Of a stretch of DNA of 64,000 nt, positions 4,914-24,617 are shown one piece after another. The first letter of the stretch is position 1, and every line of letters begins with the position of its first letter. The DNA lies in assembly GCA_032718475.1 (NCBI GenBank), contig JAUCBJ010000118.1, forward strand, positions 1 to 64,000, given 5' to 3'. The translations under genes and the position numbers were made by a program. Source of the DNA: Nemertoderma westbladi. Taxonomy: Eukaryota > Animalia > Xenacoelomorpha. A model generated the notes under the pieces. That model was not told where the DNA came from, did no database searches, and worked only from the letters and a program-made list of their open reading frames with translations.

Positions 4914-5095
4914 AACGACGACGTGGCCACCAACTACACACATATACCCTCCCTCGATATTATATTATATTATATCGATTGCCAACTCAACGATTTAGCC
5001 CCCGCTAGCTAGCGCTACTCCTCGACGGCTGTCACCAACCTCCTAGTATGATACATGAAATTCCATTCCGTTCCAGCTACGTGTATACGAGCATT
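4914..5095 (+). repeat. Polinton left TIR (imperfect, truncated)
   Basis: AACGACGACGTGGCCACCAACTAC, ATATTATATTATATCGATTGCCAACTC, CATGAAATTCC and GTATACGAGCATT match, in order, the reverse complement of 22567-22724. Confidence 0.85.
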
Positions 5096-5749: not shown

Positions 5750-5937
5750 TAATATCATTGATTCTTGACTTTTCCCTCTATATTATAAATATTTTATGAT
5801 TATTTTTAAAATTTTAATGTTTTTAAATAATCGAAAATTGTAGTAGTAATTGTATATACAGTATAACAGATTTGTTTGTTGTTGTTGTTGTTGTGTATTG
5901 AGGTAATTATTTTCAATTTACTTTAAAATTTGGAAAA

Positions 5938-6390
5938 ATGGATATTTTAAATGAACAATGTCCAGTTTGCTATTCTAAGTTATTGCAACAACATCGAGAT
6001 TATTATAAATGTGAAAATAAACATGCAACTTGCGTACAATGTATTGTACAATATTCCGAAATGAATAATTATTGTTCTAAAATTTGTCCTATTTGTCGCG
6101 CACCCATATCTAAGTTTAATATAAAGTTGGCAAGTTATCAACCCTATTATTGGAAAGAGCTTCGAAATATAACTTATATTTCTGCGGAAAGTAATGATCC
6201 GGGAGATTTATTTACAATATTGGAGAATATTTTTTATAGAAATGTAGTACGACGGTGTTGCTACTATATTCCTTATTTTTTTAGCAGCGAACATAAAAAA
6301 ATCATTAGTGCGAAATTCTCGGGAAGTGATTTCCAAACCGCCGATGTTACCTATCATTATTTCGCGTATAAAGATGCTCACCATGCTTGA
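5938..6390 (+). CDS. RING-finger (C3HC4-like) protein, putative E3 ligase
   Basis: CPVC-x13-CENKHATCVQC-x13-CPICRAPI spacing with the typical CPxCR ending. Confidence 0.8.
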   Translation: MDILNEQCPVCYSKLLQQHRDYYKCENKHATCVQCIVQYSEMNNYCSKICPICRAPISKFNIKLASYQPYYWKELRNITYISAESNDPGDLFTILENIFYRNVVRRCCYYIPYFFSSEHKKIISAKFSGSDFQTADVTYHYFAYKDAHHA

Positions 6391-6606
6391 AATTACATCA
6401 GTCTATACTATAATTGGAAATAGCACCTTTTGTTGCAGCGAGCGTCACATACTGTAGTTGTGTCATATGTTAATTAAATATACAGTACTCTAATATTGTA
6501 GTTGCCTCAATTATTGTTATATACATAGTAATGGTGATGGTTTATTGATATTGATATTTATATTATATTATATTGTATTGTTGATATATCTTAATAATAA
6601 TAATAA

Positions 6607-7290
6607 ATGGCTGACTTTAATTCAGGTCCATGTAATTTAAACTTTCAAATGGGAACGAGTATGATAATTTCTGGGCCATCTGGTTCTGGAAAGTCAACCT
6701 TTGTAAGCAATTTAATTAAACACAAGAATGGTTGTTTCAACGAAGCCCCCTTGCGAGTATTGTATTGTTACGGGAGCAATCCCCCGACTATTCCCGGTAT
6801 TACTCACCTTTACAAAGGTTTGCCTGAAAATATAGATAGTTTAGTGAATAGTCGAGATTTATTAATTATAGATGATTTATTAACAGAAACTGAGTCCAGT
6901 ACAGCTTTAACTGTATTGTTTACTAAGGTAGCTCATCATTCCAATATATTTATTTGTTTTATAACGCAAAACATGTTTTACGGTGGGAAGCATAACCGCA
7001 CAAGATCAATTAATAGCCGTACTTTAGTATTAATGAAAAATCCGCGAGACAGTTTATCGGTTTTAAATTTCGCGAAGCAGATGTTACCAGGGCAGACCAA
7101 ATTTTTAGTTGATTCCTATCAAGATGCAACTATTGAACCATTTTCGCATTTCTTAATTGATTTACGACAGGAAACACCCGAACATTTAAGATTTAGATCG
7201 GATATATTTCGTAATCATAATTGTTACATTAAAAATTACATTGACTATAAACGTAGTGAAAATAATAATAATAATAATAATGATAAATAA
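6607..7290 (+). CDS. Polinton DNA-packaging ATPase (A32/FtsK-HerA family)
   Basis: Walker A GPSGSGKS, Walker B LLIIDD, LFTKVAHHSNI..ITQN motif, KNPRD. Confidence 0.93.
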   Translation: MADFNSGPCNLNFQMGTSMIISGPSGSGKSTFVSNLIKHKNGCFNEAPLRVLYCYGSNPPTIPGITHLYKGLPENIDSLVNSRDLLIIDDLLTETESSTALTVLFTKVAHHSNIFICFITQNMFYGGKHNRTRSINSRTLVLMKNPRDSLSVLNFAKQMLPGQTKFLVDSYQDATIEPFSHFLIDLRQETPEHLRFRSDIFRNHNCYIKNYIDYKRSENNNNNNNDK

Positions 7291-7934: not shown

Positions 7935-8992
7935 ATGCCACGCAAGATGAAACCAATTTTAAGCCGAAGCTTAGACAAAAAACTGTTAAGAATTTATTTA
8001 GATCCTTCATCCCCCGCGGGATTTGCAAGTGTTGCAAAATTAGCAAAAGCTGCAAACATCAAACCAGCACAAGCCCAGAAATGGCTGAGAGGGCAAAAGA
8101 CATACACCCTTCACGCTCCACGTAGACATCATTATCCAACATCTAAAATATTTACGGGAGGCTTAAAAGATATATATATGATAGATCTGGTGGATATGCA
8201 GCAATATAAATCGCAAAATAATAATTATAACTATATATTAACATGTATTGATGCCTTTAGCAGGCTTGCTTTTGCCTATGGTATGAAAACAAAAAAGGGT
8301 ATTGAAATTATTAGTATAGTAGAATCGCGACTGATCAAGGTTCTGAGTTTCTAAATAAATCTGTAAGGAAATATTTAGATACGTTAGGTATACAGTATTA
8401 CGTAATGTATTCTGTGAATAAGGCGGCTATTGTCGAGAGATTCAATAGAACATTAAAAACAAAGATGTTCAAAATTTTCACGCAACGAGGAAATAATGTT
8501 TGGATTAAAATTTTACCAAAGCTCATTTATGCTTATAATAGGTCATATCATAGGACAATAAAAATGACACCTATTGAAGTTAATAAATTTAATGAAACTG
8601 AATTACTGAATAGATTATATGGGAAATATAAACAGATTAATCATAAGAAAATAAAATTTAAAGTTGGAGATACAGTACGATTATCTATCGCACGTACTGC
8701 TTTTGCTAAAGGCTATCGAGAACAATGGACACGTGAATTATTTATTATTCATCGTGTCAGGTTGGATAGAGTACCAGCGGTAATGTTCGATATTAAGGAC
8801 AGCGCTGGAGCTATAATAAATGGCTCATTTTATTCTCACGAACTCCAAAAGGTCCACCCGAATAGTAATATTTATCTACCAATTGACAAAAATATTGGCA
8901 AACTTAAAGAACGTGTACGCAATGGGAAGAAAGAATATTTAGTCCGATTCATCGGATCCAAGAAACAGTCGTGGGTACAGCATATTCAATAA
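7935..8992 (+). pseudogene. Polinton retroviral-type (RVE) integrase, frameshifted near 8315-8325
   Basis: YLDPSSPAGFAS, YTLH, IDLVDM, TCIDAFSR in the first ORF; ATDQGSEF and VERFNRTLK in the second frame; C-terminal chromodomain-like KEYLVRFIG..SWV. A short deletion separates the halves. Confidence 0.92.
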
Positions 8993-9242
8993 GCTTAGGT
9001 TTATACTGTATATTAATTCATTTTGGTTGCATATGACCGTAATTAATCAATATTAACTCGAATGATATTACTATATCTATAGTTCATCAGCTTTAAATAA
9101 AGCCAGTAAAATATTGATCCCTCGCATATACTGTAGAAGATGCGACAATGAACGTGGTCACAGATGTCTATAATTTAACATTATACTGTACTGTATGTAC
9201 AATGGAGTCAAGTAGAGAGAGAGAGCTTAAATAATAATAATA

Positions 9243-10115
9243 ATGGCCACAGATACATATATCACTCTACTTTCAGATAGCTCATTAAACACTTACCCCA
9301 ATAATAATCCTAGCGAGTTTACTGTTGATTTAGCCGAAGAATTATATATTGGTCCAAACGCTAAAATTTGGCTTGCCGAGCTACAATACCAAGCAACATA
9401 CAGCAATATTACGCTGCAAACTCAAATCTCGCTGTCAATCGGGGTAGATGCAAAAGATGCCAAATTATATTGTTTATTTCCTGGTATGCATAGCTCTATT
9501 CAAGTGATTATTGATGATATAAATAAACTGTTTAATTCTGAAGCGAAATATAGAGATTTCGAATTCATTTTTAATACAAATAATTCTAGAATTAAATTTA
9601 AATTTCCTAAAAAGTTGAAAAAAATACAATTAAGTCTACGTGGTGATTTAATACAAATTCTAGGCTTAAAACCGTTATTGGATCGGAATCATCCGGGTAT
9701 TCCGAATTGGGATATATACAGTACCACTACAGTAGATGAATTAAGCAATATAGAACAGCCGATATTAATTTTAAATTATAGCGGACCAAAAATTTCGGAA
9801 ATTGGCATTTTAGATTTTACAGCTCCCACGAATATAACACGTAATAAAGACACTATTTTTATATATACTGATATTATTAAGAGCTCATTTGTTGGTGACG
9901 CTTTAGCTCCGCTCTTAAGAACCTGCCCTTTAACGCAATTAAATCGAAAATATATTAATCACGAATACGAGAGCATTTGCTATTACCCGTTGTTGAATAA
10001 AAAACTAAAAACAATCTTAATTACTTTACGTGACGGACAAGGCGAATTAATTAATTTTAGCGGAGGTCGCACTGTTATAACACTTAAGTTAATACGCGGT
10101 GGGGATGATGGATGA
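9243..10115 (+). CDS. Minor capsid (penton-like) protein, copy 1
   Basis: N-terminal YITLLSDSSLNTYPNNNPSEFTVDL..LAELQY and C-terminal FIYTDII..VGDALAPLLR..YYPL..ITLRDGQGELINF, typical of Polinton minor capsid proteins. Confidence 0.85.
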   Translation: MATDTYITLLSDSSLNTYPNNNPSEFTVDLAEELYIGPNAKIWLAELQYQATYSNITLQTQISLSIGVDAKDAKLYCLFPGMHSSIQVIIDDINKLFNSEAKYRDFEFIFNTNNSRIKFKFPKKLKKIQLSLRGDLIQILGLKPLLDRNHPGIPNWDIYSTTTVDELSNIEQPILILNYSGPKISEIGILDFTAPTNITRNKDTIFIYTDIIKSSFVGDALAPLLRTCPLTQLNRKYINHEYESICYYPLLNKKLKTILITLRDGQGELINFSGGRTVITLKLIRGGDDG

Positions 10116-10953
10116 ATTCTACGTAAGACTACCAAGTAACTCCTGTCCAATTGATTTTCCCCGCAATAGCGCTAGTAATTATCAGATCAATTTCCATGGC
10201 GCCTTACCTATAAACCCAAACGAAAACTGGGTGGTAGGTATAAAAAGTATATTTTACTTAGCAACGTTGCCGTCCATGTATAACAATGTAGAGAATGTTA
10301 TTTTATTAAAAAAAGGGAAAAAAAATTTTGAGGATACACTTCCATTCGGTTTGTTCTACAGTATCAATGACATTATAGATTATTTTAACACTGGGGCATT
10401 GAAAGATAAATTACAAATAGTTGAAAATACTCAGCAAAATAGGTTGCAATTTATTTTAGGGAAAACTGTGCGAGAGTTATTTATAGGTCAACAATTAGCC
10501 TATTATTTTGGAATTAATGAAAATAATCTCGGCGCGAATTTAAATCCAAATTTTAAAATTATTTTGAAGACGAAAAATAACATAAAGGGTTATTTAATAA
10601 AGGTTATCGGAAATGGAGAAAAAGCTTACCAGATGGTATTTTTATGCCCTCAACCGCCCAATTCTATTCCAGAACCTAAGTCGAACATGTACGTGACTAC
10701 TAATATAATTGAAAATCAATATATTAATGACTTTGGTTTAGCTTTACTTCGTCGTGTTGCGATACCTGATGATGTGAAATATGGTAGCGTAATAAATAAA
10801 GAATTTGTCAAGGATACAATTCATTATATCCCTGTAAAAAAATCATATAAGATAACATACATTCATATTGAAATAACAGACAAAGAAGGAAAAGATTTGA
10901 ATTTTGAATACAGGACAACATCTATTACATTACACTTTAAACAAATAAATTAA
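10105..10953 (+). CDS. Minor capsid (penton-like) protein, copy 2
   Basis: FYVRLPSNSC..FPRNSASNY..WVVGIKSI and MYVTTNII..ALLRRV..HYIPV..IHIEITDKEG..LNF..TSITLHF; paralogous to the preceding ORF. Confidence 0.82.
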   Translation: MMDEFYVRLPSNSCPIDFPRNSASNYQINFHGALPINPNENWVVGIKSIFYLATLPSMYNNVENVILLKKGKKNFEDTLPFGLFYSINDIIDYFNTGALKDKLQIVENTQQNRLQFILGKTVRELFIGQQLAYYFGINENNLGANLNPNFKIILKTKNNIKGYLIKVIGNGEKAYQMVFLCPQPPNSIPEPKSNMYVTTNIIENQYINDFGLALLRRVAIPDDVKYGSVINKEFVKDTIHYIPVKKSYKITYIHIEITDKEGKDLNFEYRTTSITLHFKQIN

Positions 10954-11517: not shown

Positions 11518-12742
11518 ATGTCAATTATTAAGGAATTAGATTTATTTTCTATACAGCCAATACAGACTGAATTTAAAGCAAAGCATTATGAAACAATTTA
11601 CCCCATATCTAATCTCGGAAGTGAGTCTAGGGAAGTCACGTTCCTTGTACCGAGATCCAATGAATTCTATACGAAACTGCAAGATGCGTTATCAATTACA
11701 AAATGTACTGTACGGTGGGATAGACGACTTGAAAATTCCCATATATATATGCTGAATTACCCTGCTGAAACTATGTGGAGTGATATTAAAATAGACCTTA
11801 ATGAGAAGCAGGTTGAAAATAGCAATAACCATTATTTCTACAAGTCGTACTTATCCAATTTATTATTTACAACTTACGAGGATAAAAATGGGCTACTGGG
11901 TGCGGGTGGCTTTCATTAGCCTTTATCTGAACACGGAAATGAAATTGACCCCGGCGCGCATCCTATTGGCGATGCCTTTAGTAAACAAATGCAATTTGTA
12001 AGTGGATTGACGATTGATTTTGATACTGAAAGCAAAATAATACAACCCGGGTATGATTTAAGAATGCATTTTAGAAAAGTATCAAATTCGTTTATTTTTA
12101 AAATCACTCCAAATGCAAACGCGGTGACAAATCTTCGGCTAGAATTAGATGAAATAAAGATCCTAATCCCTAGAATGGAGGTTAATCCGGTAATAGAAAG
12201 CAGTCACCTAAAAGGTTTAGACAGTTACAACATTTACTATTCCCGCTCAAACCACAAATTATACCCAAACAAACATATTTGATGGTAAAAAACCCAAATT
12301 AGTTATTATCGGCTTCATAACAAATAACGCTTATTCGGGAGAATTAATTAGCAATCCCTTGAAATTTGAACATTTTAATCTTAGACGCGCGGAACTGATT
12401 GTAGACGGTCTTCCAGTAGGTGGTGTAATATACGAGCCTAATTTTACAGATGGAACATATATTTTTGAGTATACTCAATTAATGAACAACATTAATACAT
12501 ATATTAACGGTTATGGAGGTAATAATATAGACCATGAAACCTACTTAGGTAATTGTCCCCTCCTATCCTGGGACTTAACCGCCGATGGCTATGTTAGAGA
12601 TCCGCAACCGTCAATATATACTAACGGCCAATTAAAATTAAGATTTGCCGAACCGTTGGTTGAAACCATAAATGTAATCGTTTTTAATATTTATGATCAA
12701 TCATTAAGTTTAAATAGTAGGAAAGAAATACATATCGATTAA
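11518..12742 (+). pseudogene. Major capsid protein (double jelly-roll), disrupted
   Basis: KELDLFSIQPIQT..YPISNL, YFYKSYLSNLL, NIFDGKKPKLVIIGF..NAYSG..NPLKFEHF, LKLRFAEPL; in-frame TAG at 11917-11919 and a frameshift/deletion near 12240-12270. Confidence 0.88.
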
Positions 12743-12744
12743 GT

Positions 12745-13199
12745 ATGTTATCTACTGAGGACCTTGATATGTTTCCAGTGGGTGGTCACTATTTGGGTGC
12801 GTTTCCAGCTAATAAATTACCTAAATTAGATAATAATAATAAGCGGAGAGATTATGGGTTAATAGTAAATACCGATAAAGAGCATCTGCCCGGGATTCAT
12901 TGGATCGCAATATATATACGAGATAATGAGGCTGAATTATTTGATTCATTCGGATCAAAATATCCAAACAGATGCATCGAAAAATGGCTTGAGAAAAATT
13001 CCGCAAGATGGCGTACTACTCGCAAACAATTTCAAGACCCAAGGAGGACCACATGCGGCCTATACTGTCTTTATTACTTGGTAAATCGAATTCACACAAA
13101 CTATCCAATGAGTGCTTTACAAATAATGTGGAAATAAATGAAATAATATTATATAAATGGCTTGTTAATTATTATAAAATAAACCAACAAGCGTTGTAA
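12745..13199 (+). CDS. Adenain-like cysteine maturation protease (C-terminus probably frameshifted; called ORF ends 13137)
   Basis: YLGAFPANKLP, IVNTD..PGIHWIA (His), FDSFG (Asp), QFQ, TCGLYC (Cys); a plausible tail FTNNVEINEIILYKWL lies in the overlapping frame ending 13199. Confidence 0.9.
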
Positions 13200-13230: not shown

Positions 13231-13833
13231 ATGGATAATATTATTTTTGTTGATTTTCAATATTATAAGATAGACAATAAAGAGTATCCGGTAGTATTTA
13301 AAGAATTTGCTATATTCGATTCTAATTACACCAAAACTAATGTAAAGACGTTTTTAATTAAAGGCCCACCTAATATTAAGTTATCAGCTTTAGATGTAGC
13401 TCACGTAAACAATTTACGATTCATGACTTCTCATTTGCCCTGGGACTACGGTGACATTTCGCAAGATGACTTTAAAAAATATATGAAGAGACATTTAAAA
13501 TATAAAAAAAATATACATGTATTTGGGTTGATGAAGCGGGCAATATTAGTTTCCCAACTCGATGTTCTCGTGCCAAATTCGGTGGAGAAATTGGGAATAT
13601 ATAAGCAATATCATGATTATTTAACCCCCTGTCGCTTCCACGATCAATTTACTACAGTAGAAAATAAATGTGCATTCCACTTAAACATAAAGGATAACTG
13701 TCTGCGGTATTGCTCAGCAAAACGCGTTGGGGGGTATGAGATGCTACACTTTTTCATGAGAAAGCGTTTAACTGCGACTGATGATGATAAACAGAAAGAA
13801 ATAACTGCGGTGGAAGATGTACTCATACTGTAA
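13231..13833 (+). CDS. Polinton accessory protein, possible DEDD/DnaQ-like exonuclease fold
   Basis: IIFVDFQ..VFKEFAI..FLIKGPP..HLPWDYGDI pattern resembles ExoI-like starts of an uncharacterised Maverick family; Cys/His cluster at the C-terminus. Confidence 0.55.
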   Translation: MDNIIFVDFQYYKIDNKEYPVVFKEFAIFDSNYTKTNVKTFLIKGPPNIKLSALDVAHVNNLRFMTSHLPWDYGDISQDDFKKYMKRHLKYKKNIHVFGLMKRAILVSQLDVLVPNSVEKLGIYKQYHDYLTPCRFHDQFTTVENKCAFHLNIKDNCLRYCSAKRVGGYEMLHFFMRKRLTATDDDKQKEITAVEDVLIL

Positions 13834-14812: not shown

Positions 14813-14968
14813 CATAGTTAATTTATTTATGTATTCGCTTTTTTTTAAATTATATATAAAATAGGTTCGGTCTACTAAGTTTTATAAGCAACAATAACTG
14901 ATAACAATAACAATAACAACAACAATAACAACAACAACAACACTAAATTTATTACTGTATTATACTTT

Positions 14969-15388: not shown

Positions 15389-16068
15389 CTTCGAGTCGAG
15401 GTAAGTTGTCGTCGTCGTCGTAACTAGGTACCGGTAAGAATATCTTTAAATTGAATAGGTAGGCCTACTGATATTTTTTTCTTCTTTTGTTTAACAAAAT
15501 TATAGTTCACTGTCAGAAAAATTGAGTTTATATATATTTTTGTAGAGGGTCGCAGATGTGTACATTACAAAATTCTCATAGTTAACAAAATGCACAACAT
15601 AAACCTTTCCCAGGCGGATTAGCGATATATGCTCTGTTTGTTGTTCTATTCTGAATGTAGGGAGATGCCTAGCCGATGTTTTAATGATATGTACCGGTAT
15701 ACAGACTAGTAACAGATAGGAGGGCATCGTCTTTGACTATGAATACCAGCACATAGCCCTAATCTTTTCTCACCGAGCTTAGCGTTGCCCGCCGCACTCA
15801 CGCACACTCATAAGTAACAGATGCGCTATTGTAACTCACTCGTGAGCAACAATGCCAAGTTAGCTAGCTAGCTACAGCCCCTGAGTATACTATGCCTACT
15901 TGAGTGTTACAAGCAGCAATCGCACTACCGAAGTTAATTTCCCCTCAAACTAGTTGTTGATTTTAAAAAAATATTCATAATTTTTTTCCAACCAATTTAA
16001 TATATATATATTTTACAGTAAAAATCTCCACCACCAAACAGCAACAACAACAATAAATTTCACTCACA

Positions 16069-16617
16069 CTAATTATATTTTACAACAAAAACCCTCGCAC
16101 CAAACAATAATAAATTATTAACCAGTTTGTTGAATATAGGGTAATATATATGAAATTTAAACGGGGAACACATTAATGTACATTTACCGGTGTAGAAGCA
16201 GCAAACAACAACATTATTATTTATTCTGACTTTACAGTTATTGAATATTTCAGGTTCATATATAACTTGAAGTTGCACATTATCAAAGACAACATAAAAC
16301 CCGGTATTGTTTATCAATAACCTATAGACTACAGACTTAATACTAAAAATATAAGTACATAAATTAACAGATTTTAAAATCAAATTAATACTAGTTTTAT
16401 CAAATATATGCTTTTTTACTTTTTGGAAATTATACTTACTGCCTAATAATGTAATACGACCATTTTTAAATATTAATAATGTGGCACCAAATATCTTATA
16501 TATAAACTGATTTGGTTTGAGTATGTGTTTACCAGATAATTGATTTTTTAATTCTTTAAAATTAATCGCTAACACTTGCTGGCAACTTACATTTTTATTT
16601 ACTATTTGATAATTCAT
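16069..16617 (-). CDS. Divergent TATA-box-binding protein (TBP)-like protein
   Basis: Two-repeat TBP core: YQIVNKNVSC..INFKEL, ATLLIFKNGRITLLGSK (cf. TALIFSSGKMVCTGAK), YEPEIFN (cf. YEPELFP), VVVCCFYTGKCTL (cf. VLLIFVSGKVVL). Likely ATG at 16617 overlaps the pPolB end; ORF track starts at 16647. Confidence 0.8.
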   Translation of the reverse strand: MNYQIVNKNVSCQQVLAINFKELKNQLSGKHILKPNQFIYKIFGATLLIFKNGRITLLGSKYNFQKVKKHIFDKTSINLILKSVNLCTYIFSIKSVVYRLLINNTGFYVVFDNVQLQVIYEPEIFNNCKVRINNNVVVCCFYTGKCTLMCSPFKFHIYYPIFNKLVNNLLLFGARVFVVKYN

Positions 16618-19600
16618 CACCAATACCATCGTCTTTTGGTTCTTCATAAATTGGTATATTTGATATTTTTATAGGTTTTTTGAGGTTTGTTTTATAGTGC
16701 CCCCAAGGAAGCGAATGATTTTTATTAACCCAATAAAGTTTATCGTCAAAGCTACTGAGTGCAAATTTATTTTGCTTTAAGGTATAAATACGATGTAATT
16801 TAGATTGACATCTGTGTATGTTTTTTTTTATTTCTTCATTTGAGTTATATGCTTTTAAATATTCTTCATGTGTAATATTCGTTTCCACAACAGCTCTTGT
16901 AATACCTTTTGCTCTACGAATATTTTTGTTATTCCATTCCAAAATTGAATATAATTTTGTTCTTAAAAATACTGCTTGTTTAATTTCATGTGAGGCTAGT
17001 TCGTCTTTACAGTAATAGAGTTGGGATTTATTTTTATCGCTGTAGAGAGGGTGATCCTTAGGGTAATTGGAAGTATCTAAAATATTATTTTTAATTAATG
17101 CTTTTAAAAAATTATTCTGTGATGTATTATAATAACAACCTATTAAAGAGTCAGTGTCTGATGCAGAAATTTCAATACGACAGTTTAATTCTTTCTCAAT
17201 AGGTAGCAATTTATTGTAAAACAGCTCATACATATCCAATTTAGCCAAGTCCAACACAGCGCTACCAATAAATATAGGCTTATTGAGAGTTACAGAGTCT
17301 TTCACTAATAAATGTCCCGATAATGTATTATTGTATATTATAAATTGTTCATGATTAATACGATTTACCAATTGATCGCATTTATCGTTGCTATTTGCGA
17401 TACAAAAGTTACATCGATCTCTTATCTTTTCTATTGATTTGCCAAACAGTGAATTATTGAGCAATTTCGCGACAGCAGTTTCAATGTAACTTTTTGCTAG
17501 GCGCCTTTGATTAATATTAAAATCTATATAATTTTTAAATACAAATTCTTGTTGAAAAGAATATAATTTATGTAGTTTAGTAACAATTAATCCATGTTTT
17601 ATATAAAATTTTAACAGTTTCAAATGTAAATGATAAAACTCTTTATCAAATTGCGTCAGCAAGAGTTTTGGTGTAGACATCCTATATTTACGGGAGGTAC
17701 CTTTTTGTATCGATAAATTATTAAATTGTTCCCTCATATAAGGTGAAAGCATTGATTCATTTATACTTAAATGCTCTGGAGCTAACGGTAATTGTAATGT
17801 TTGATCGTGAATAGCTTTAGGATAATTTAAATCACATATTAAAAAATATCCAGTAGATCCATCAATGTCTAAATCTACCAAGTACTCGATTAGTTTTTCT
17901 GGAATTGCATTCTCTAAATGTTTAATACTTACTTCTTTGAATTGCGAGGTGGGTAGTTTTTTACTTAAATTCCCTGAATATAAAGAGTTGAAATCAATAT
18001 TAAAAATATGGCATTCTTCCTTAGTAGAATCATATGTACTTGTTCCTGGTATATTTGATTCTATATAATGCTTTCGACAAAATGAAACACCACCCCTAAT
18101 TGATTTTTCAAAATCTCTATATGTCTGATAATCCTTTATTAATTCTATTTTACATTTATTATATTTTAGTGCGCAATCATAGGTAAATGACTTGATACTA
18201 CAGTAAAAAACCACTTCTAAATCGTAATTTTGTTTACAAACATTCCTAAAATTCTCAAATATATCAGCAAGCAAACAAACATCGAGTTTTAAATAGGCTA
18301 AAAGATAATCTTTGAGATTCACACAGTCGAATTCAACCCATGATAATTCCGCAAACCTATAATCTTCTATTGTACATGTTTTTTGACTTAAGTTACTAAA
18401 AAAATTATTTATAGATGGCAAACTAGTATCATTAAATTTATTAATATCTGTCAAGTACTCGTATGGAAATACTCCTTTCCGTTTAATTGTTGAGTTATTC
18501 AAGTTTGGATAAAAATATTTCATTTCTTGTAGAGTAATAGGTAAAATTGAGCTTATATCATGACTCGCTACATCCTTTGTTGAACACTCAACTAAATTAC
18601 TTAAAGAAAAGCTTAAAAATTGATATGTGTCCAAGAAACGTAACTCAATTTTTTTAGAAGTGTTTTTAATTGGGATAAATACACTCGGTGAAATATATCG
18701 TTCTGTATTTCTCGGTATAACCTTTATATCCCAATCTGTGTATTTCTTATCTCTAAATCCGGTTTGTAATATACAATGTATATCGTAGTTGTTGGAATTG
18801 TGCCCGCAAAGTACATACAGGTATCGTTTCAATGATAAACTTCGGTTACAACTATTACAGGCTGCCGCAATATATTTACCTGTAATATGTGAATGATGTC
18901 TGTTTTTCCCAACATTATTATTTAAAGTAACATTACAATAGAAACAGAATTTTGCTTGTTCAAAATTTACAAAATCAATATTAGTAAATGACATGGTTTT
19001 ATGAGTGTATATATCTGACCAACAACATAATTCAGTTAAATCAGTATATAATGAATCTAAGAAATCTTGAATACAATTATTATTATTATTATTTGTCGTT
19101 AAAAATGTTTTCAAATGACATTTTGGTGGGTCAATTAATTCAGTATTGGGAACAATTAAATAACTCACAGCACACGGTATATGCTCCTGTATAAATTGAT
19201 TATTAACTGAAGGTTGTAAGATACATTCTATATCAAAGTAGGTGACAAACAATGGGGATAAGGTTCTATCTAAATTTGTAAAACTGATGTGTGTTCTTTT
19301 TTTATTAGGTAGTTTCTCGCGCTGACTTCTTCCTTGGTAGCATACGAGACGGTGTCTATGAAGAACTTCCGCTCGAAAAAAATGAGCCAGGCACCTTTCA
19401 CAAAATTGCCTACCTCGGGTATGAAGAGCTCTCGTATTCAGCAATCGATTCAAGTTAGTTATGCAAACATAATGATTCAGTTTAGGTACATTGTTATTTT
19501 TTACTACAAGTAATATATTTAATAACTGTTTATCAGGTGTAATTTTACTAAACGGAGGTTGTCTTAATATAGATACAGGAGTGTGTTTGTTGTCGTTATT

Positions 19601-20659
19601 CCAACATAGTAAATTAATTATATATTTTGAATTTTGTTTTTCAAAAAGTTTAATCGCTAACTGCCACTCTGTTGGATAATATTTGTTCCCATTGTCAAAA
19701 ATGATATGACTCATATAATTTTTGTACAATGAAGTATGGTTTTTGTTGTTTTTCACTTTGCTACCAAATTTTGCGGATATAATAGCCCATTTGAAACAAT
19801 CATTATCAGCTGTTTGTATATTTATTGTACATTTTTTAGCTGATAAAGCCTTAGGTAATTCCATATATCCATGCCCCTTATATAGTAACGACCTAAACTT
19901 AGATTCAGCTAATTTAATTTCAACCCTTAATAAAGATTTAATACGCCACCCCGAACCACGTGTGTTAAAGATGGCTATTTTTTGTAATATATTTCCCAGC
20001 ACATACTCAAACCATGTGTCAAAACTTTGCGGCGAATCTACAGTATTAATAGCACCACCGGAAGAATTAAAATAAAAGGTTTCCAATTGCTCGCCTTCTG
20101 AAAAATGTGATCTGTACATTAATACATTTAGACCTAACCACAGTCTAAGAACATTCATTTCTTTCAATCTATCTAATATTAACTGAAGAATATTACCTCG
20201 AATTTGTGCTAAAGCTGTTTCTACATCGGGATAATCTCTAGAAGTTGGGAGGTCGTGGACATAAATTTCAAGACGATTATCGTGAGCTTCTTGTTCCCGC
20301 GTAAAAATTGTTGCGCATGTACCAAGAGCCACCCTTAAGTTTTTTCTGGATATTATATTTTTATGTTGCGGAAATTTACGCTTTCTTGTGTAGTAACATT
20401 TCAAGTGACAGTCGTGTCGTATATAATTCTCATATGTATACTCTTTATTACAGGTAGAACAAGTCAATTGATAGGTGCGGAACTCCATTTCTTTACAACC
20501 AGTAGTTGATTCATGTCGTTTACAAATTTCGCTGCATGAAGTCACGACATGACACTTAAAACAAGAATAACCTTCAAAATGTGACCATAGGTGGCGTAAG
20601 TAATTATGTCTAGTTACATTCATATGACAGAATGAACAACATATTGTTATTTTATCCAT
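16595..20659 (-). CDS. Protein-primed family B DNA polymerase (pPolB), intact, 1354 aa
   Basis: ExoI YFDIE, ExoII HNSNNYD, ExoIII YLKLD; Pol A DFNSLY, B KLLNNSLFGK, C SDTDS; KGVFPYEY; N-terminal C2H2-like fingers, vOTU-like DNDCFKWA...NHY, EndoVII/HNH-like insert CFYC..RHHSHITGKY..CNSCN. Confidence 0.97.
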   Translation of the reverse strand: MDKITICCSFCHMNVTRHNYLRHLWSHFEGYSCFKCHVVTSCSEICKRHESTTGCKEMEFRTYQLTCSTCNKEYTYENYIRHDCHLKCYYTRKRKFPQHKNIISRKNLRVALGTCATIFTREQEAHDNRLEIYVHDLPTSRDYPDVETALAQIRGNILQLILDRLKEMNVLRLWLGLNVLMYRSHFSEGEQLETFYFNSSGGAINTVDSPQSFDTWFEYVLGNILQKIAIFNTRGSGWRIKSLLRVEIKLAESKFRSLLYKGHGYMELPKALSAKKCTINIQTADNDCFKWAIISAKFGSKVKNNKNHTSLYKNYMSHIIFDNGNKYYPTEWQLAIKLFEKQNSKYIINLLCWNNDNKHTPVSILRQPPFSKITPDKQLLNILLVVKNNNVPKLNHYVCITNLNRLLNTRALHTRGRQFCERCLAHFFRAEVLHRHRLVCYQGRSQREKLPNKKRTHISFTNLDRTLSPLFVTYFDIECILQPSVNNQFIQEHIPCAVSYLIVPNTELIDPPKCHLKTFLTTNNNNNNCIQDFLDSLYTDLTELCCWSDIYTHKTMSFTNIDFVNFEQAKFCFYCNVTLNNNVGKNRHHSHITGKYIAAACNSCNRSLSLKRYLYVLCGHNSNNYDIHCILQTGFRDKKYTDWDIKVIPRNTERYISPSVFIPIKNTSKKIELRFLDTYQFLSFSLSNLVECSTKDVASHDISSILPITLQEMKYFYPNLNNSTIKRKGVFPYEYLTDINKFNDTSLPSINNFFSNLSQKTCTIEDYRFAELSWVEFDCVNLKDYLLAYLKLDVCLLADIFENFRNVCKQNYDLEVVFYCSIKSFTYDCALKYNKCKIELIKDYQTYRDFEKSIRGGVSFCRKHYIESNIPGTSTYDSTKEECHIFNIDFNSLYSGNLSKKLPTSQFKEVSIKHLENAIPEKLIEYLVDLDIDGSTGYFLICDLNYPKAIHDQTLQLPLAPEHLSINESMLSPYMREQFNNLSIQKGTSRKYRMSTPKLLLTQFDKEFYHLHLKLLKFYIKHGLIVTKLHKLYSFQQEFVFKNYIDFNINQRRLAKSYIETAVAKLLNNSLFGKSIEKIRDRCNFCIANSNDKCDQLVNRINHEQFIIYNNTLSGHLLVKDSVTLNKPIFIGSAVLDLAKLDMYELFYNKLLPIEKELNCRIEISASDTDSLIGCYYNTSQNNFLKALIKNNILDTSNYPKDHPLYSDKNKSQLYYCKDELASHEIKQAVFLRTKLYSILEWNNKNIRRAKGITRAVVETNITHEEYLKAYNSNEEIKKNIHRCQSKLHRIYTLKQNKFALSSFDDKLYWVNKNHSLPWGHYKTNLKKPIKISNIPIYEEPKDDGIGDELSNSK

Positions 20660-20845: not shown

Positions 20846-21916
20846 TCATGGGCTCATGTAAGAATAATAATCAGGTTTCCATGGAGAATTAGTAACTGGA
20901 TCTACTGGAACTAGCTGACCGACAACTTTCTGTTTCTTTGCAGGTGATGCGTTGGTTAATTTACTCGATGATCTTGGCTTCCGAGGTAATATTTCAGGAA
21001 AGACCTGTTGCGGTTGAGAGCAACTCTCTTCAACATCCGGATTAGGTGATGGGATCTCTACGAATGCTTTAGGTTTATCCAAAAGGACAAAACCGTCAAC
21101 ACGGGCTTCAGTAAGAGAAACGCCATCCATCGATTCTTTGAGAAAACTAATATGGGCTTTATCATTCAAGTAATGCAACTCGATAGAATTTCCACCGGCA
21201 CCTACTTCAGTAGAATTATCGGTGTTGGTGATAATAATTTTTTTATTATTGGTTTTAATCATTTTGAGCCGGTCTGATAATTGAATGATATTTTTATCAA
21301 AAAGATGCTTGTCTGTTTCATCGACTTGGTTGTCCCACTCTCGCAACAAAACGGTTAGTTCCTGTTTTGACAAATTGAAACCCGTATAATAGTTAAAACC
21401 AACACTATCAGCGTATCTGATGCTGATTTTCCATAAGCCAACATAGTTGGTTCCTTTAAAAGCTGTTACAAATCCAATAAACTCTGGATTTGATAATTCA
21501 ATGTAGAATTGATCGCTAATAATCTCTAGCGGTGGAGAGAGAAATTGCAATAATTTCCCTCTGTATTGAATTAGAACTTCAGTAAAAGCTTTGTTGAGAA
21601 CTTTACATTTGCCTTGTTTCTGAACGTAAACATCACCCGATGTGGAGTTGATGGAAATGTTCAAATTTCCCCGCGCAAAACGAAGAGTTGGATATATCCT
21701 ACCTGGTATAATTGCTGGTCTGGATTGATGTTGGTTGTTGTTGGTTGTTTCTAGAATGTCTAACAAATAGCGGGTATCTTGATGGGAAAAACAAATTGAT
21801 TCGTTGTCCTCCTGAGATTCCACAATAAAATACTTGCTGTGAACGGCGGTACAAGTATATTTATTGTAAGTAAATTTCCAGCTATTTGCTGCTCCGGTTT
21901 TTTGCGTTAAGGCCAT
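20846..21916 (-). CDS. 356-aa protein with a PC4/Sub1-like ssDNA-binding domain and C-terminal NLS
   Basis: aa ~136-200 GFVTAFKGTNYVGLWK...TGFNLSKQELTVL aligns by eye to PC4 YVSVRDFKGKVLIDIRE...KGISLNPEQWSQL; SPAKKQKV NLS-like motif in a disordered tail. Confidence 0.55.
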   Translation of the reverse strand: MALTQKTGAANSWKFTYNKYTCTAVHSKYFIVESQEDNESICFSHQDTRYLLDILETTNNNQHQSRPAIIPGRIYPTLRFARGNLNISINSTSGDVYVQKQGKCKVLNKAFTEVLIQYRGKLLQFLSPPLEIISDQFYIELSNPEFIGFVTAFKGTNYVGLWKISIRYADSVGFNYYTGFNLSKQELTVLLREWDNQVDETDKHLFDKNIIQLSDRLKMIKTNNKKIIITNTDNSTEVGAGGNSIELHYLNDKAHISFLKESMDGVSLTEARVDGFVLLDKPKAFVEIPSPNPDVEESCSQPQQVFPEILPRKPRSSSKLTNASPAKKQKVVGQLVPVDPVTNSPWKPDYYSYMSP

Positions 21917-21976: not shown

Positions 21977-22273
21977 GTAATAAATTGACACCATAGTTCT
22001 CACTCTAAAATTGTGTTGGTCGGAAGACGACGCCTGATAAAAATGATGCTGAGTTCGACATTAGGTATCGACTCAAAAACAAAAATCGGGTGAGACATGT
22101 AGCTCAGATTTTCGTTTTTAGGTCGATACCCAATGCTGGAATCAGTATCATTTTATGTGGTGTCGTTTTCCAACCAATGAATATACAACGAGTAAGATAA
22201 TGTAGAAATTATTAAGGAAATAACACAATTTCAGAGTGAGAACAAAAAATGAGATATGGTATCAATATATTAC
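21977..22273. other. Long imperfect hairpin flanked by 22-bp direct repeats
   Basis: 22016-22087 pairs with 22107-22177; 21996-22017 with 22222-22243; 21977-21995 with 22255-22273; ATTACAAGTGAT(A/G)AATTTTAAA at 21945-21966 and 22281-22302. Confidence 0.85.
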
Positions 22274-22566: not shown

Positions 22567-22724
22567 AATGCTCGTATACGTGTAGTTGACACGAGGCGGA
22601 ATTTCATGCACATGTATCGTACTGAGTGGTTGGTTTGTTGGTTTGGCGACGGCTGTCGTGGAGTTGGCAATCGATATAATATAATATATGCTCGATGCGA
22701 GTAGTTGGTGGCCACGTCGTCGTT
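22567..22724 (-). repeat. Polinton right TIR (portion matching the left TIR)
   Basis: Reverse complement of blocks in 4914-5095. Confidence 0.85.
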
Positions 22725-23981: not shown

Positions 23982-24617
23982 CTACTGTACAACTAGAACA
24001 AGAAGTGTCGCAACTAACAAGCATCTTGGTGCGATGATATTATTGGAACTGCCCTCAGTAACCAACCAGACAGTAGCACCAGTAGTAGTACCATCTGGTG
24101 TCGATGTGGTTTGTATTACATTTTCTTTCCATTCAGCTGGAGGTGAACTACAGATGCCCTCACAACATCGCAACTGGCAAGAGAAGTGTGTTACGGTCAG
24201 GTCGATTTTGATCCAGTTTAATATATTTAACATTCTCACTGTTTCGTCGTCTCGGTATTCCGATTTGGCCTCAGGAAGAACTACCTCGATCATGTAGATA
24301 CATCCATCTTCGTTTATTGGTACACACTGGCTGTCGCAGAAGTCATACTGATACTCGAACGTTATTTCTCCTTGGTAACCTTCTCGTCGCCCAGACAACA
24401 GCATGGATGTCGCACCGCAAGCAGAACATTCATGATCTGTCATATTACGACGAAGGTACGGGTTAGATTCTAGAAAGTCCGCGATCTTATCTTTATAGAA
24501 CTTTAGTAAGTTGTCGTTGTCTGAGGTGATTCTTGAAGGGTATTGGTATCGGCAGGTATAGTTCGAAGTGACTATTGATACTTGGAATGTAATTAATGCA
24601 GCTGAAATAATTTTCAT
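23982..24617 (-). CDS. Intronless, predicted GPI-anchored Cys-rich surface protein (Ly6/uPAR three-finger-like)
   Basis: Signal peptide MKIISAALITFQVSIVTS, 10 Cys ending in RCCEGICS, Thr-rich stalk, small-residue omega region (GSS) and hydrophobic C-terminus LLVATLLVLVVQ. Confidence 0.65.
   Translation of the reverse strand: MKIISAALITFQVSIVTSNYTCRYQYPSRITSDNDNLLKFYKDKIADFLESNPYLRRNMTDHECSACGATSMLLSGRREGYQGEITFEYQYDFCDSQCVPINEDGCIYMIEVVLPEAKSEYRDDETVRMLNILNWIKIDLTVTHFSCQLRCCEGICSSPPAEWKENVIQTTSTPDGTTTGATVWLVTEGSSNNIIAPRCLLVATLLVLVVQ

Follow-up and report, generated by a model that had tools for sequence, protein, structure and literature searches.

Results

The Polinton element and its genes

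The window, meaning the whole 64,000-nucleotide stretch of Nemertoderma westbladi DNA analysed here, holds an element of ~17.8 kb that is bounded by inverted-repeat pieces and carries the complete Polinton/Maverick (adintovirus) gene set—pPolB, integrase, ATPase, protease, and major and minor capsid genes—as well as accessory frames:

4914..5095 (+): left inverted-repeat region, 79% over 80 nt and 79% over 42 nt
6607..7290 (+): packaging ATPase; weak P-loop and Pox_A32 matches, E 3e-49 to related-locus ATPases
7935..8992 (+): retrovirus-type integrase, spread across two frames here
9243..10953 (+): two tandem minor-capsid-like genes
11518..12742 (+): major capsid protein gene, broken into three pieces here
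12745..13137 (+): adenovirus-type maturation protease; Pfam Peptidase_C5 23.6 bits, cut-off 21.3
16069..16617 (-): divergent two-lobe TATA-binding protein (TBP) family gene, 182 aa; Pfam TBP match, query-free profile match and silent excess among siblings
16595..20659 (-): protein-primed DNA polymerase B (pPolB), intact, 1354 aa; 569 homologues at E<=1e-20, the best 39% identical
22567..22724 (-): right inverted-repeat region, from the same inverted-repeat comparison

The inverted repeats include an A/T-rich core; exact termini and a target-site duplication of the element were not found. Named relatives of the pPolB, from a sea spider, a pseudoscorpion and a sponge, share 31-38% identity with it. 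In this copy pPolB and TBP are intact, and the integrase and major capsid genes are broken. Nucleocytoviruses mostly encode their own RNA polymerase. For this element, the sequence-only reading's statement that it has none agrees with the Pfam scans of its frames (18 frames, then 16 window frames), where no RNA polymerase or TFIIB family match appeared at E<=0.1, although Pfam could miss a viral TFIIB that is very divergent.

Several further features accompany these genes. Just upstream of pPolB, a 356-aa ORF (20846-21916, minus strand) has no Pfam, NCBIfam, PHROGs or PDB match; by eye, its residues ~145-200 resemble what we take to be a PC4-type single-strand-binding/coactivator domain, but profile and structure searches gave this reading no support. 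A RING-finger-like ORF with weak Pfam matches under the cut-off lies near the left end (5938-6390, plus strand), and a 48-bp inverted repeat (81%, with a 19-nt spacer) occupies 22040-22154 within the right end. Just outside the right repeat is a 211-aa cysteine-rich ORF with hydrophobic ends and no Pfam match (23982-24617, minus strand), and many tandem and dispersed repeats extend across 25600-64000.

A divergent TBP-family gene

The minus-strand open frame 16069-16647 encodes 192 aa from its first ATG and 182 aa from the ATG at 16617; residues are numbered here from the ATG at 16647, which makes the start at 16617 M11. Open stretches of 150 codons arose in 0 of 5000 shuffles of this 75% A+T DNA. 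Both sequence signatures singled out in the sequence-only reading, LLIFKNGRITLLGSK and YEPEIF...CFYTGKCTL, lie inside this frame, and its description of an intact ORF of ~182 aa with both TBP half-repeats holds, as does the profile match it had called for. Pfam PF00352 recovers the ORF in two stretches at 32.6 bits (E 7.4e-8), above the curated cut-off of 22.9. A profile of 120 TBPs found with P0001, with the query left out, gives residues 5-157 a score of 28.4 bits; none of 2000 shuffles did better than 10.5 (1827 scored). P0001, a 171-aa TBP (Pfam E 2.5e-44, and named TBP by its source), was the one protein matched in a HMMER scan of 1.84 billion representatives, at E 3e-4.

Other routes returned little. 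A word-based protein search with the window TBP found no relative, phmmer against solved structures gave chance myosin matches only, and viral contigs searched with TBP queries, and also with a single pPolB, yielded no match. The single-sequence fold was uninformative (pLDDT 34); folding with the TBP alignment, which steers the model, gave pLDDT 73 and pTM 0.62, with solved TBPs matching at E 1e-10 and giant-virus TBPs among the top structural matches.

The protein shares with cellular TBP, TRF and archaeal TBP (PF00352) the two-lobe repeat, the F-x-x-G-[KR] turns, the YEPExF stirrup, the first asparagine and a strongly basic charge (pI 9.8). Its identity to the 54 comparison TBPs placed in our tree does not exceed 28%, and it differs from cellular TBP in lacking an N-terminal extension. 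It is close to certain that the gene is a real, selected member of the TBP family.

Selection among sibling copies

This Polinton family is present in four public runs, in which 543, 163, 2 and 6 contigs aligned to the TBP region. The TBP gene and the end of pPolB are linked on one 650-nt contig from run X4, which carries 64 differences. The sibling data are contig fragments, and selection was assessed by a test of silent excess, rather than a formal dN/dS, among the differences listed (40 of 78), of which 38 lie outside the pPolB overlap.

Among these siblings the TBP gene is under purifying selection. Conservation across sibling copies, on which the sequence-only reading had made its claim depend, is seen in the 18 silent differences among the 38 listed, where the same types of change would lead one to expect 9.4 (p 0.0013, rough ratio 0.37). 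For one-change codons away from the insertion, 12 of the 19 listed differences are silent against 5.1 expected (ratio 0.21). The pPolB control gives 13/21 silent against 5.2 expected (ratio 0.20). The signal is significant for the C-lobe alone (10/16 listed differences silent, p 0.006), and the N-lobe alone shows no significant excess (6/16 listed, p 0.12). The listed differences include no stops and no non-silent change at 12 key codons; the protein retains F60, F135, F151, N17 and an F-x-x-G-[KR] turn in each lobe, and none of these is touched by the listed differences. Listed in-frame insertions total three bases per diverged contig, so that the reading frame is kept.

Relation to pPolB

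The TBP frame shares 23 nt with the 3' end of the 1354-aa pPolB frame, and the following signals lie at the junction:

16594..16599 (-): AATAAA overlapping the pPolB stop, candidate polyadenylation signal, its function presumed
16618..16647 (-): in-frame 10-codon extension with two further ATGs, within the pPolB tail; absent from one X4 sibling contig
16667..16673 (-): second TATAAAA box, 56 nt before the TBP start
16690..16696 (-): TATAAAA box, candidate own promoter, in the pPolB tail, 79 nt before the TBP start

The start at 16617 is favoured because one run-X4 contig matches up to that ATG and then continues for 19 letters without the two upstream in-frame ATGs; the 10-codon extension is probably unused. 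The pPolB coding strand (4065 nt) holds three TATAAAA words, two of which precede the TBP start, and these two boxes in the pPolB tail may, from their position, constitute TBP's own promoter. Together with the AATAAA at the pPolB stop, they suggest separate transcripts for the two genes. TTG-rich tracts follow genes at 5856-5894, 14922-14960 and 16030-16060, one of them directly after an AATAAA, and are candidate downstream polyadenylation elements.

TBP genes in other Polinton loci

The comparison set comprised 121 loci with a related pPolB (78, 14 and 29), from which 8314 frames, the window's included, were scanned. A TBP gene was found in three of these other loci, L013, L005 and L072 (Pfam 56.7, 46.2 and 32.6 bits); among loci at least 12 kb long, with duplicates counted, the share is 3 of 22. 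Each of the three also has integrase, ATPase and capsid-type genes. In L005 the TBP gene lies ~1 kb after pPolB; in L072 the distance is 3.2 kb, and in L013 it is 5.5 kb, with TBP just before the ATPase. In no case do the two frames overlap. The sequence-only reading had described TBP as coupled to pPolB and had proposed a search for TBP next to pPolB in other Mavericks; given these distances and the AATAAA and TATAAAA words at the junction in the window, such coupling is not supported as a general or functional link. Translational coupling to pPolB as a general rule is thus rejected, and the overlap is a case of local packing.

No TFIIB match was detected in the accessory frames of L013, L005 and L072, loci that are cut at an end. 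Accessory genes lie at 11783-12643 and 13727-14128 in L013 and at 9037-9426, 9649-10203 and 10437-10850 in L072, and together they include KilA-N, phospholipase A2-like, dUTPase-like, weak F-box and DUF4326 genes. L005, like the window, has two minor-capsid-like genes (1130-2686 and 9017-10525). An ORF opening with a hydrophobic-D-x-[EQ] motif, which presumably resembles that of DEDD exonucleases, occurs at 13231-13833 (plus strand) in the window, 8389-8943 in L005 and 11226-11690 in L013, all three of which are elements that carry TBP; the window and L013 copies match pairwise only at E 0.047, and a profile built from the three found no further member in other loci. The 29 Polinton-type pPolB loci L093-L121 come from prokaryote-labelled genome bins and are probably mis-binned eukaryotic or viral contigs.

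The tree, of 58 rows with 54 of the 120 comparison TBPs, includes no labelled giant-virus TBP, animal TBP or TRF2. It places the four Polinton TBPs on one side of a branch (96/97) at which long branches meet; the end branch of the window TBP alone measures 4.2 changes per column. The best pairwise match of the window TBP is P0001, ahead of the other Polinton TBPs. Given the long branches, this pairwise result and the composition of the tree, we claim neither a single origin nor a donor. P0001, P0002 and P0003 group in a separate clade (96/97); these minimal TBPs, 171-175 aa in length and encoded on contigs of 1.0-1.7 kb, are possibly of viral origin.

An altered DNA-contact face and a conserved, predicted TFIIB site

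Cellular TBP inserts four intercalating phenylalanines into DNA, and its paired central N-x-V motifs read TATA. In the four Polinton TBPs the cellular N-x-V of lobe 1 becomes N-x-[N,N,H,K] (N17-K-N19 in the window), and the lobe-1 stirrup is shortened in 4/4. In the window TBP, the second asparagine, in lobe 2, is replaced by T98 or S105 depending on register, and FNNC follows the stirrup in place of FPGL. We take these altered positions (N-x-V, second asparagine and FPGL) to be the TATA-reading sites of TBP structures. The sequence-only reading had remarked that the first repeat lacks a clear NPKRF-type motif and that DNA specificity might differ; the repeat indeed reads LKPNQF-IYKIF, ~5 residues under the canonical loop, and the divergence of the face extends to the other positions just named. 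Of the phenylalanines, F60, F135 and F151 are clear, and F48, in the shortened loop, can be paired with the stirrup Phe or, alternatively, with a strand position, where L013 has Leu. The conserved Phe ahead of the x-x-G-K turn is present in both lobes (F60 and F151), at what would correspond to the L5.1 positions of Ravarani 2020 (PMC7221094).

The C-lobe stirrup, YEPEIF, is kept, and with it, by alignment, both TFIIB-contact glutamates, E131 and E133. YEPE[IL]F is found in the window, L013 and L005 TBPs; L072 reads YNIEIF and has lost the first stirrup glutamate. Ravarani 2020 (PMC7221094) describes the two C-lobe glutamates as contacting TFIIB, TFB or Brf and the first as ~40% conserved in viral TBPs, most of which vary there; it also reports that almost all viruses with a TBP carry a viral TFIIB. 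As far as alignment can tell, then, the DNA-contact face is altered and the predicted TFIIB docking site is kept.

Promoter words

Within 200 nt of window genes, TATAWAW precedes 6/7 non-structural and 1/7 structural genes (one-sided p 0.015, integrase left out). At -60..-10 of structural genes it occurs in 22/92 cases in loci without a detected TBP (background 0.04) and in 2/26 in the four TBP-bearing elements, a difference that is not significant (p 0.097). The split is confounded, since most structural genes have coding DNA upstream and since many of the loci without a detected TBP are truncated and some are near-duplicates, a relatedness by which the p-values overstate independence.

A second word appears before structural genes. 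TTAAG is the top 5-mer there in L005 and L072 (7/14, p 8e-6 before correction for 1024 words); the window has 2/7 (p 0.06), L013 0/5 and the other loci 6/92. When CTTAA, added after the window had been inspected, is counted as well, the words precede 4/7 structural and 0/7 other window genes; with the word so widened post hoc, they precede 12/26 structural genes in TBP-bearing elements against 11/92 where no TBP was detected (p 3e-4). CTTAA lies 17 nt before the ATPase start (6590-6594), a gene with no canonical TATA within 200 nt, and 17 and 22 nt before the starts of the two minor-capsid-like genes. A TATA-type box sits ~30 nt before the start site of transcription; at only 17-22 nt before the ATG, CTTAA fits an initiator-type element better. 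The evidence for a (C)TTAA(G) word is thus clear in two relatives and weak in the window element.

Two other words were considered. TATAAGA precedes 2/9 structural or integrase genes within 120 nt (p 0.01) and 1/9 within 60 nt, is found before none in the three relatives, and is likewise weak. Beta- and gammaherpesvirus late promoters use a TATTWAA box; here, unlike in herpesvirus late genes, it lies within 200 nt of 0 of the 15 window genes examined, and it was rejected as a late box.

Discussion

The sequence-only reading left open whether a TBP gene in a Polinton had been reported before. It had, in name: for MELD viruses whose PolB is adintovirus-like, the legend of Fig. 5 in Starrett 2021 (PMC8502044) marks a 'TBP' gene as 'similar to TATA binding proteins', and a figure legend in the preprint of that study carries the label too. 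This is a TBP in a polinton-like element, as in the window; the label stands in a section on non-animal datasets, and the text, in the part available, gives it no residue, selection or mechanism analysis. The one supplementary file of that study searched has 0 matches to TBP or TATA, and in the literature covered, with subscription journals and Repbase outside its scope, no study of a Polinton TBP was found beyond this figure-legend label. The word 'Polinton' does not occur in the main text of Ravarani 2020 (PMC7221094). Viral TBPs are known; a lone mini-TBP that keeps the host-TFIIB site within an 18-kb integrating element appears to be uncharacterised.

Two better-documented viral systems offer comparison. 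Like the TBPs of nucleocytoviruses, as described in Ravarani 2020 (PMC7221094), the window TBP is divergent, keeps its DNA-binding aromatics and has a changed N-lobe. Unlike those viruses, nearly all of which are reported there to have their own TFIIB, this is an 18-kb element with no detected TFIIB and with both host-type glutamates kept. KSHV ORF24, a viral protein with a TBP fold, guides host Pol II to late genes; the glutamates that contact TFIIB are missing from it, and in models it clashes with TFIIB (PMC12529657). ORF24 has further DNA-binding regions and viral partners, whereas the window TBP is a lone 182-aa domain with E131 and E133.

These observations suggest a one-protein promoter-selectivity factor that would use host TFIIB and Pol II for the late (structural) genes, a proposal to which we give even chances. 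In this scheme TBP would be an early product, transcribed from a canonical TATA promoter of its own. It would recognise a non-canonical A/T-rich word ahead of the packaging and capsid genes, and through the kept YEPEIF stirrup would bring in host TFIIB and RNA polymerase II. That the protein is expressed, that early and late phases exist, that it binds DNA and TFIIB, and which word it targets are all points that we infer from sequence. The proposal draws support from the selection on the gene, the TBP genes of three other Polinton loci, the retention of E131 and E133, the lack of a detected TFIIB or polymerase gene, the altered DNA face, the split of TATA between gene classes and the higher share of CTTAA or TTAAG in TBP-bearing elements. 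It is weakened by the faintness of the late word in this element, by CTTAA lying too near the ATG for a TATA-type box, by the non-significant 2/26 against 22/92, by the N-lobe p of 0.12, and by the L072 TBP, which lacks the first stirrup glutamate. The sequence-only reading had offered redirection of host Pol II and a TBP decoy as alternatives; the former is the likelier of the two, the latter less likely.

Other roles should also be considered. It is possible, if unlikely, that the protein boosts all element genes through host TFIIB by relaxed A/T-rich binding, escaping host N-lobe regulators and involving no early/late switch. The retained glutamate pair, the basic protein (pI 9.8) and the want of a single convincing late word in the window element would suit such a role, and viral TBPs have been suggested to evade Mot1/NC2-type regulators via a changed N-lobe (PMC7221094). 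However, uniform boosting sits poorly with canonical TATA boxes that are unevenly split between gene classes, and with the TTAAG that recurs before structural genes of two relatives (7/14).

A decoy or repressor, which would titrate host TFIIB or Brf or block TATA promoters—those of host defence genes or of the element's own early genes—without initiating transcription, is a still more doubtful reading. The TFIIB-contact stirrup is indeed the best-kept part, and one intercalating Phe position, one Asn and several DNA-contact positions have changed; yet F60, F135, F151, N17 and both F-x-x-G-[KR] turns are kept, as expected of a DNA binder, and a decoy offers no reason for the promoter differences.

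Perhaps, though improbably, the function is not transcriptional, and the protein bends or marks A/T-rich terminal-repeat DNA for protein-primed replication, integration or packaging. That TBP directly follows pPolB here, and follows it by 1 kb in L005, would fit, as would the A/T-rich core in the inverted repeats; bacterial TBP-lobe folds also occur in non-transcription proteins (PMC7221094). But adjacency to pPolB is not kept in L013 and L072, TBP occurs in just 3/22 loci of at least 12 kb, and the glutamate pair has no known role beyond TFIIB-family contact.

It is more improbable again that the partner is Pol III (Brf1/Brf2) or an unrecognised element-encoded protein instead of host TFIIB and Pol II. 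The same glutamate is used by Brf1/2 (PMC7221094), and several accessory frames have no family match; against this, the structural genes form long protein-coding units, with AATAAA after some of them, and no TFIIB-like match was found in the element or its three relatives. Finally, a decayed, functionless capture of a host TBP, for which one could cite the extreme divergence (end branch of 4.2 changes per column) and the broken integrase and capsid genes of this copy, is very improbable and largely refuted by the silent excess, by the lack of stops and the presence of only frame-keeping insertions among the listed sibling differences, and by similarly altered TBPs in three distant elements.

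Returning to the promoter-selectivity factor, a stronger and more general form may be proposed, to which we give rather less than even odds: in some animal-type Polintons, a single TBP of 160-195 aa, its DNA-reading face rewired and its stirrup for host TFIIB intact, would let a private (C)TTAA(G)-type word take the place of the canonical TATA at structural genes. An integrated element of 18 kb would then run a genuine early-to-late programme with host Pol II. No smaller transcription switch encoded by a virus would have been seen so far, and the protein would be a natural altered-specificity TBP.

A self-encoded, selected TBP provides a named and small candidate for the timing of Polinton capsid and packaging gene expression, and argues for a regulated viral cycle in such elements. 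It also differs from the two known viral solutions: giant viruses supply a TFIIB themselves and herpesviruses do without the TFIIB contacts, and the Polinton TBP appears to change how DNA is read and to keep the site for the host adaptor. A natural TBP of altered specificity, if that is what these elements carry, would inform how TBP reads DNA.
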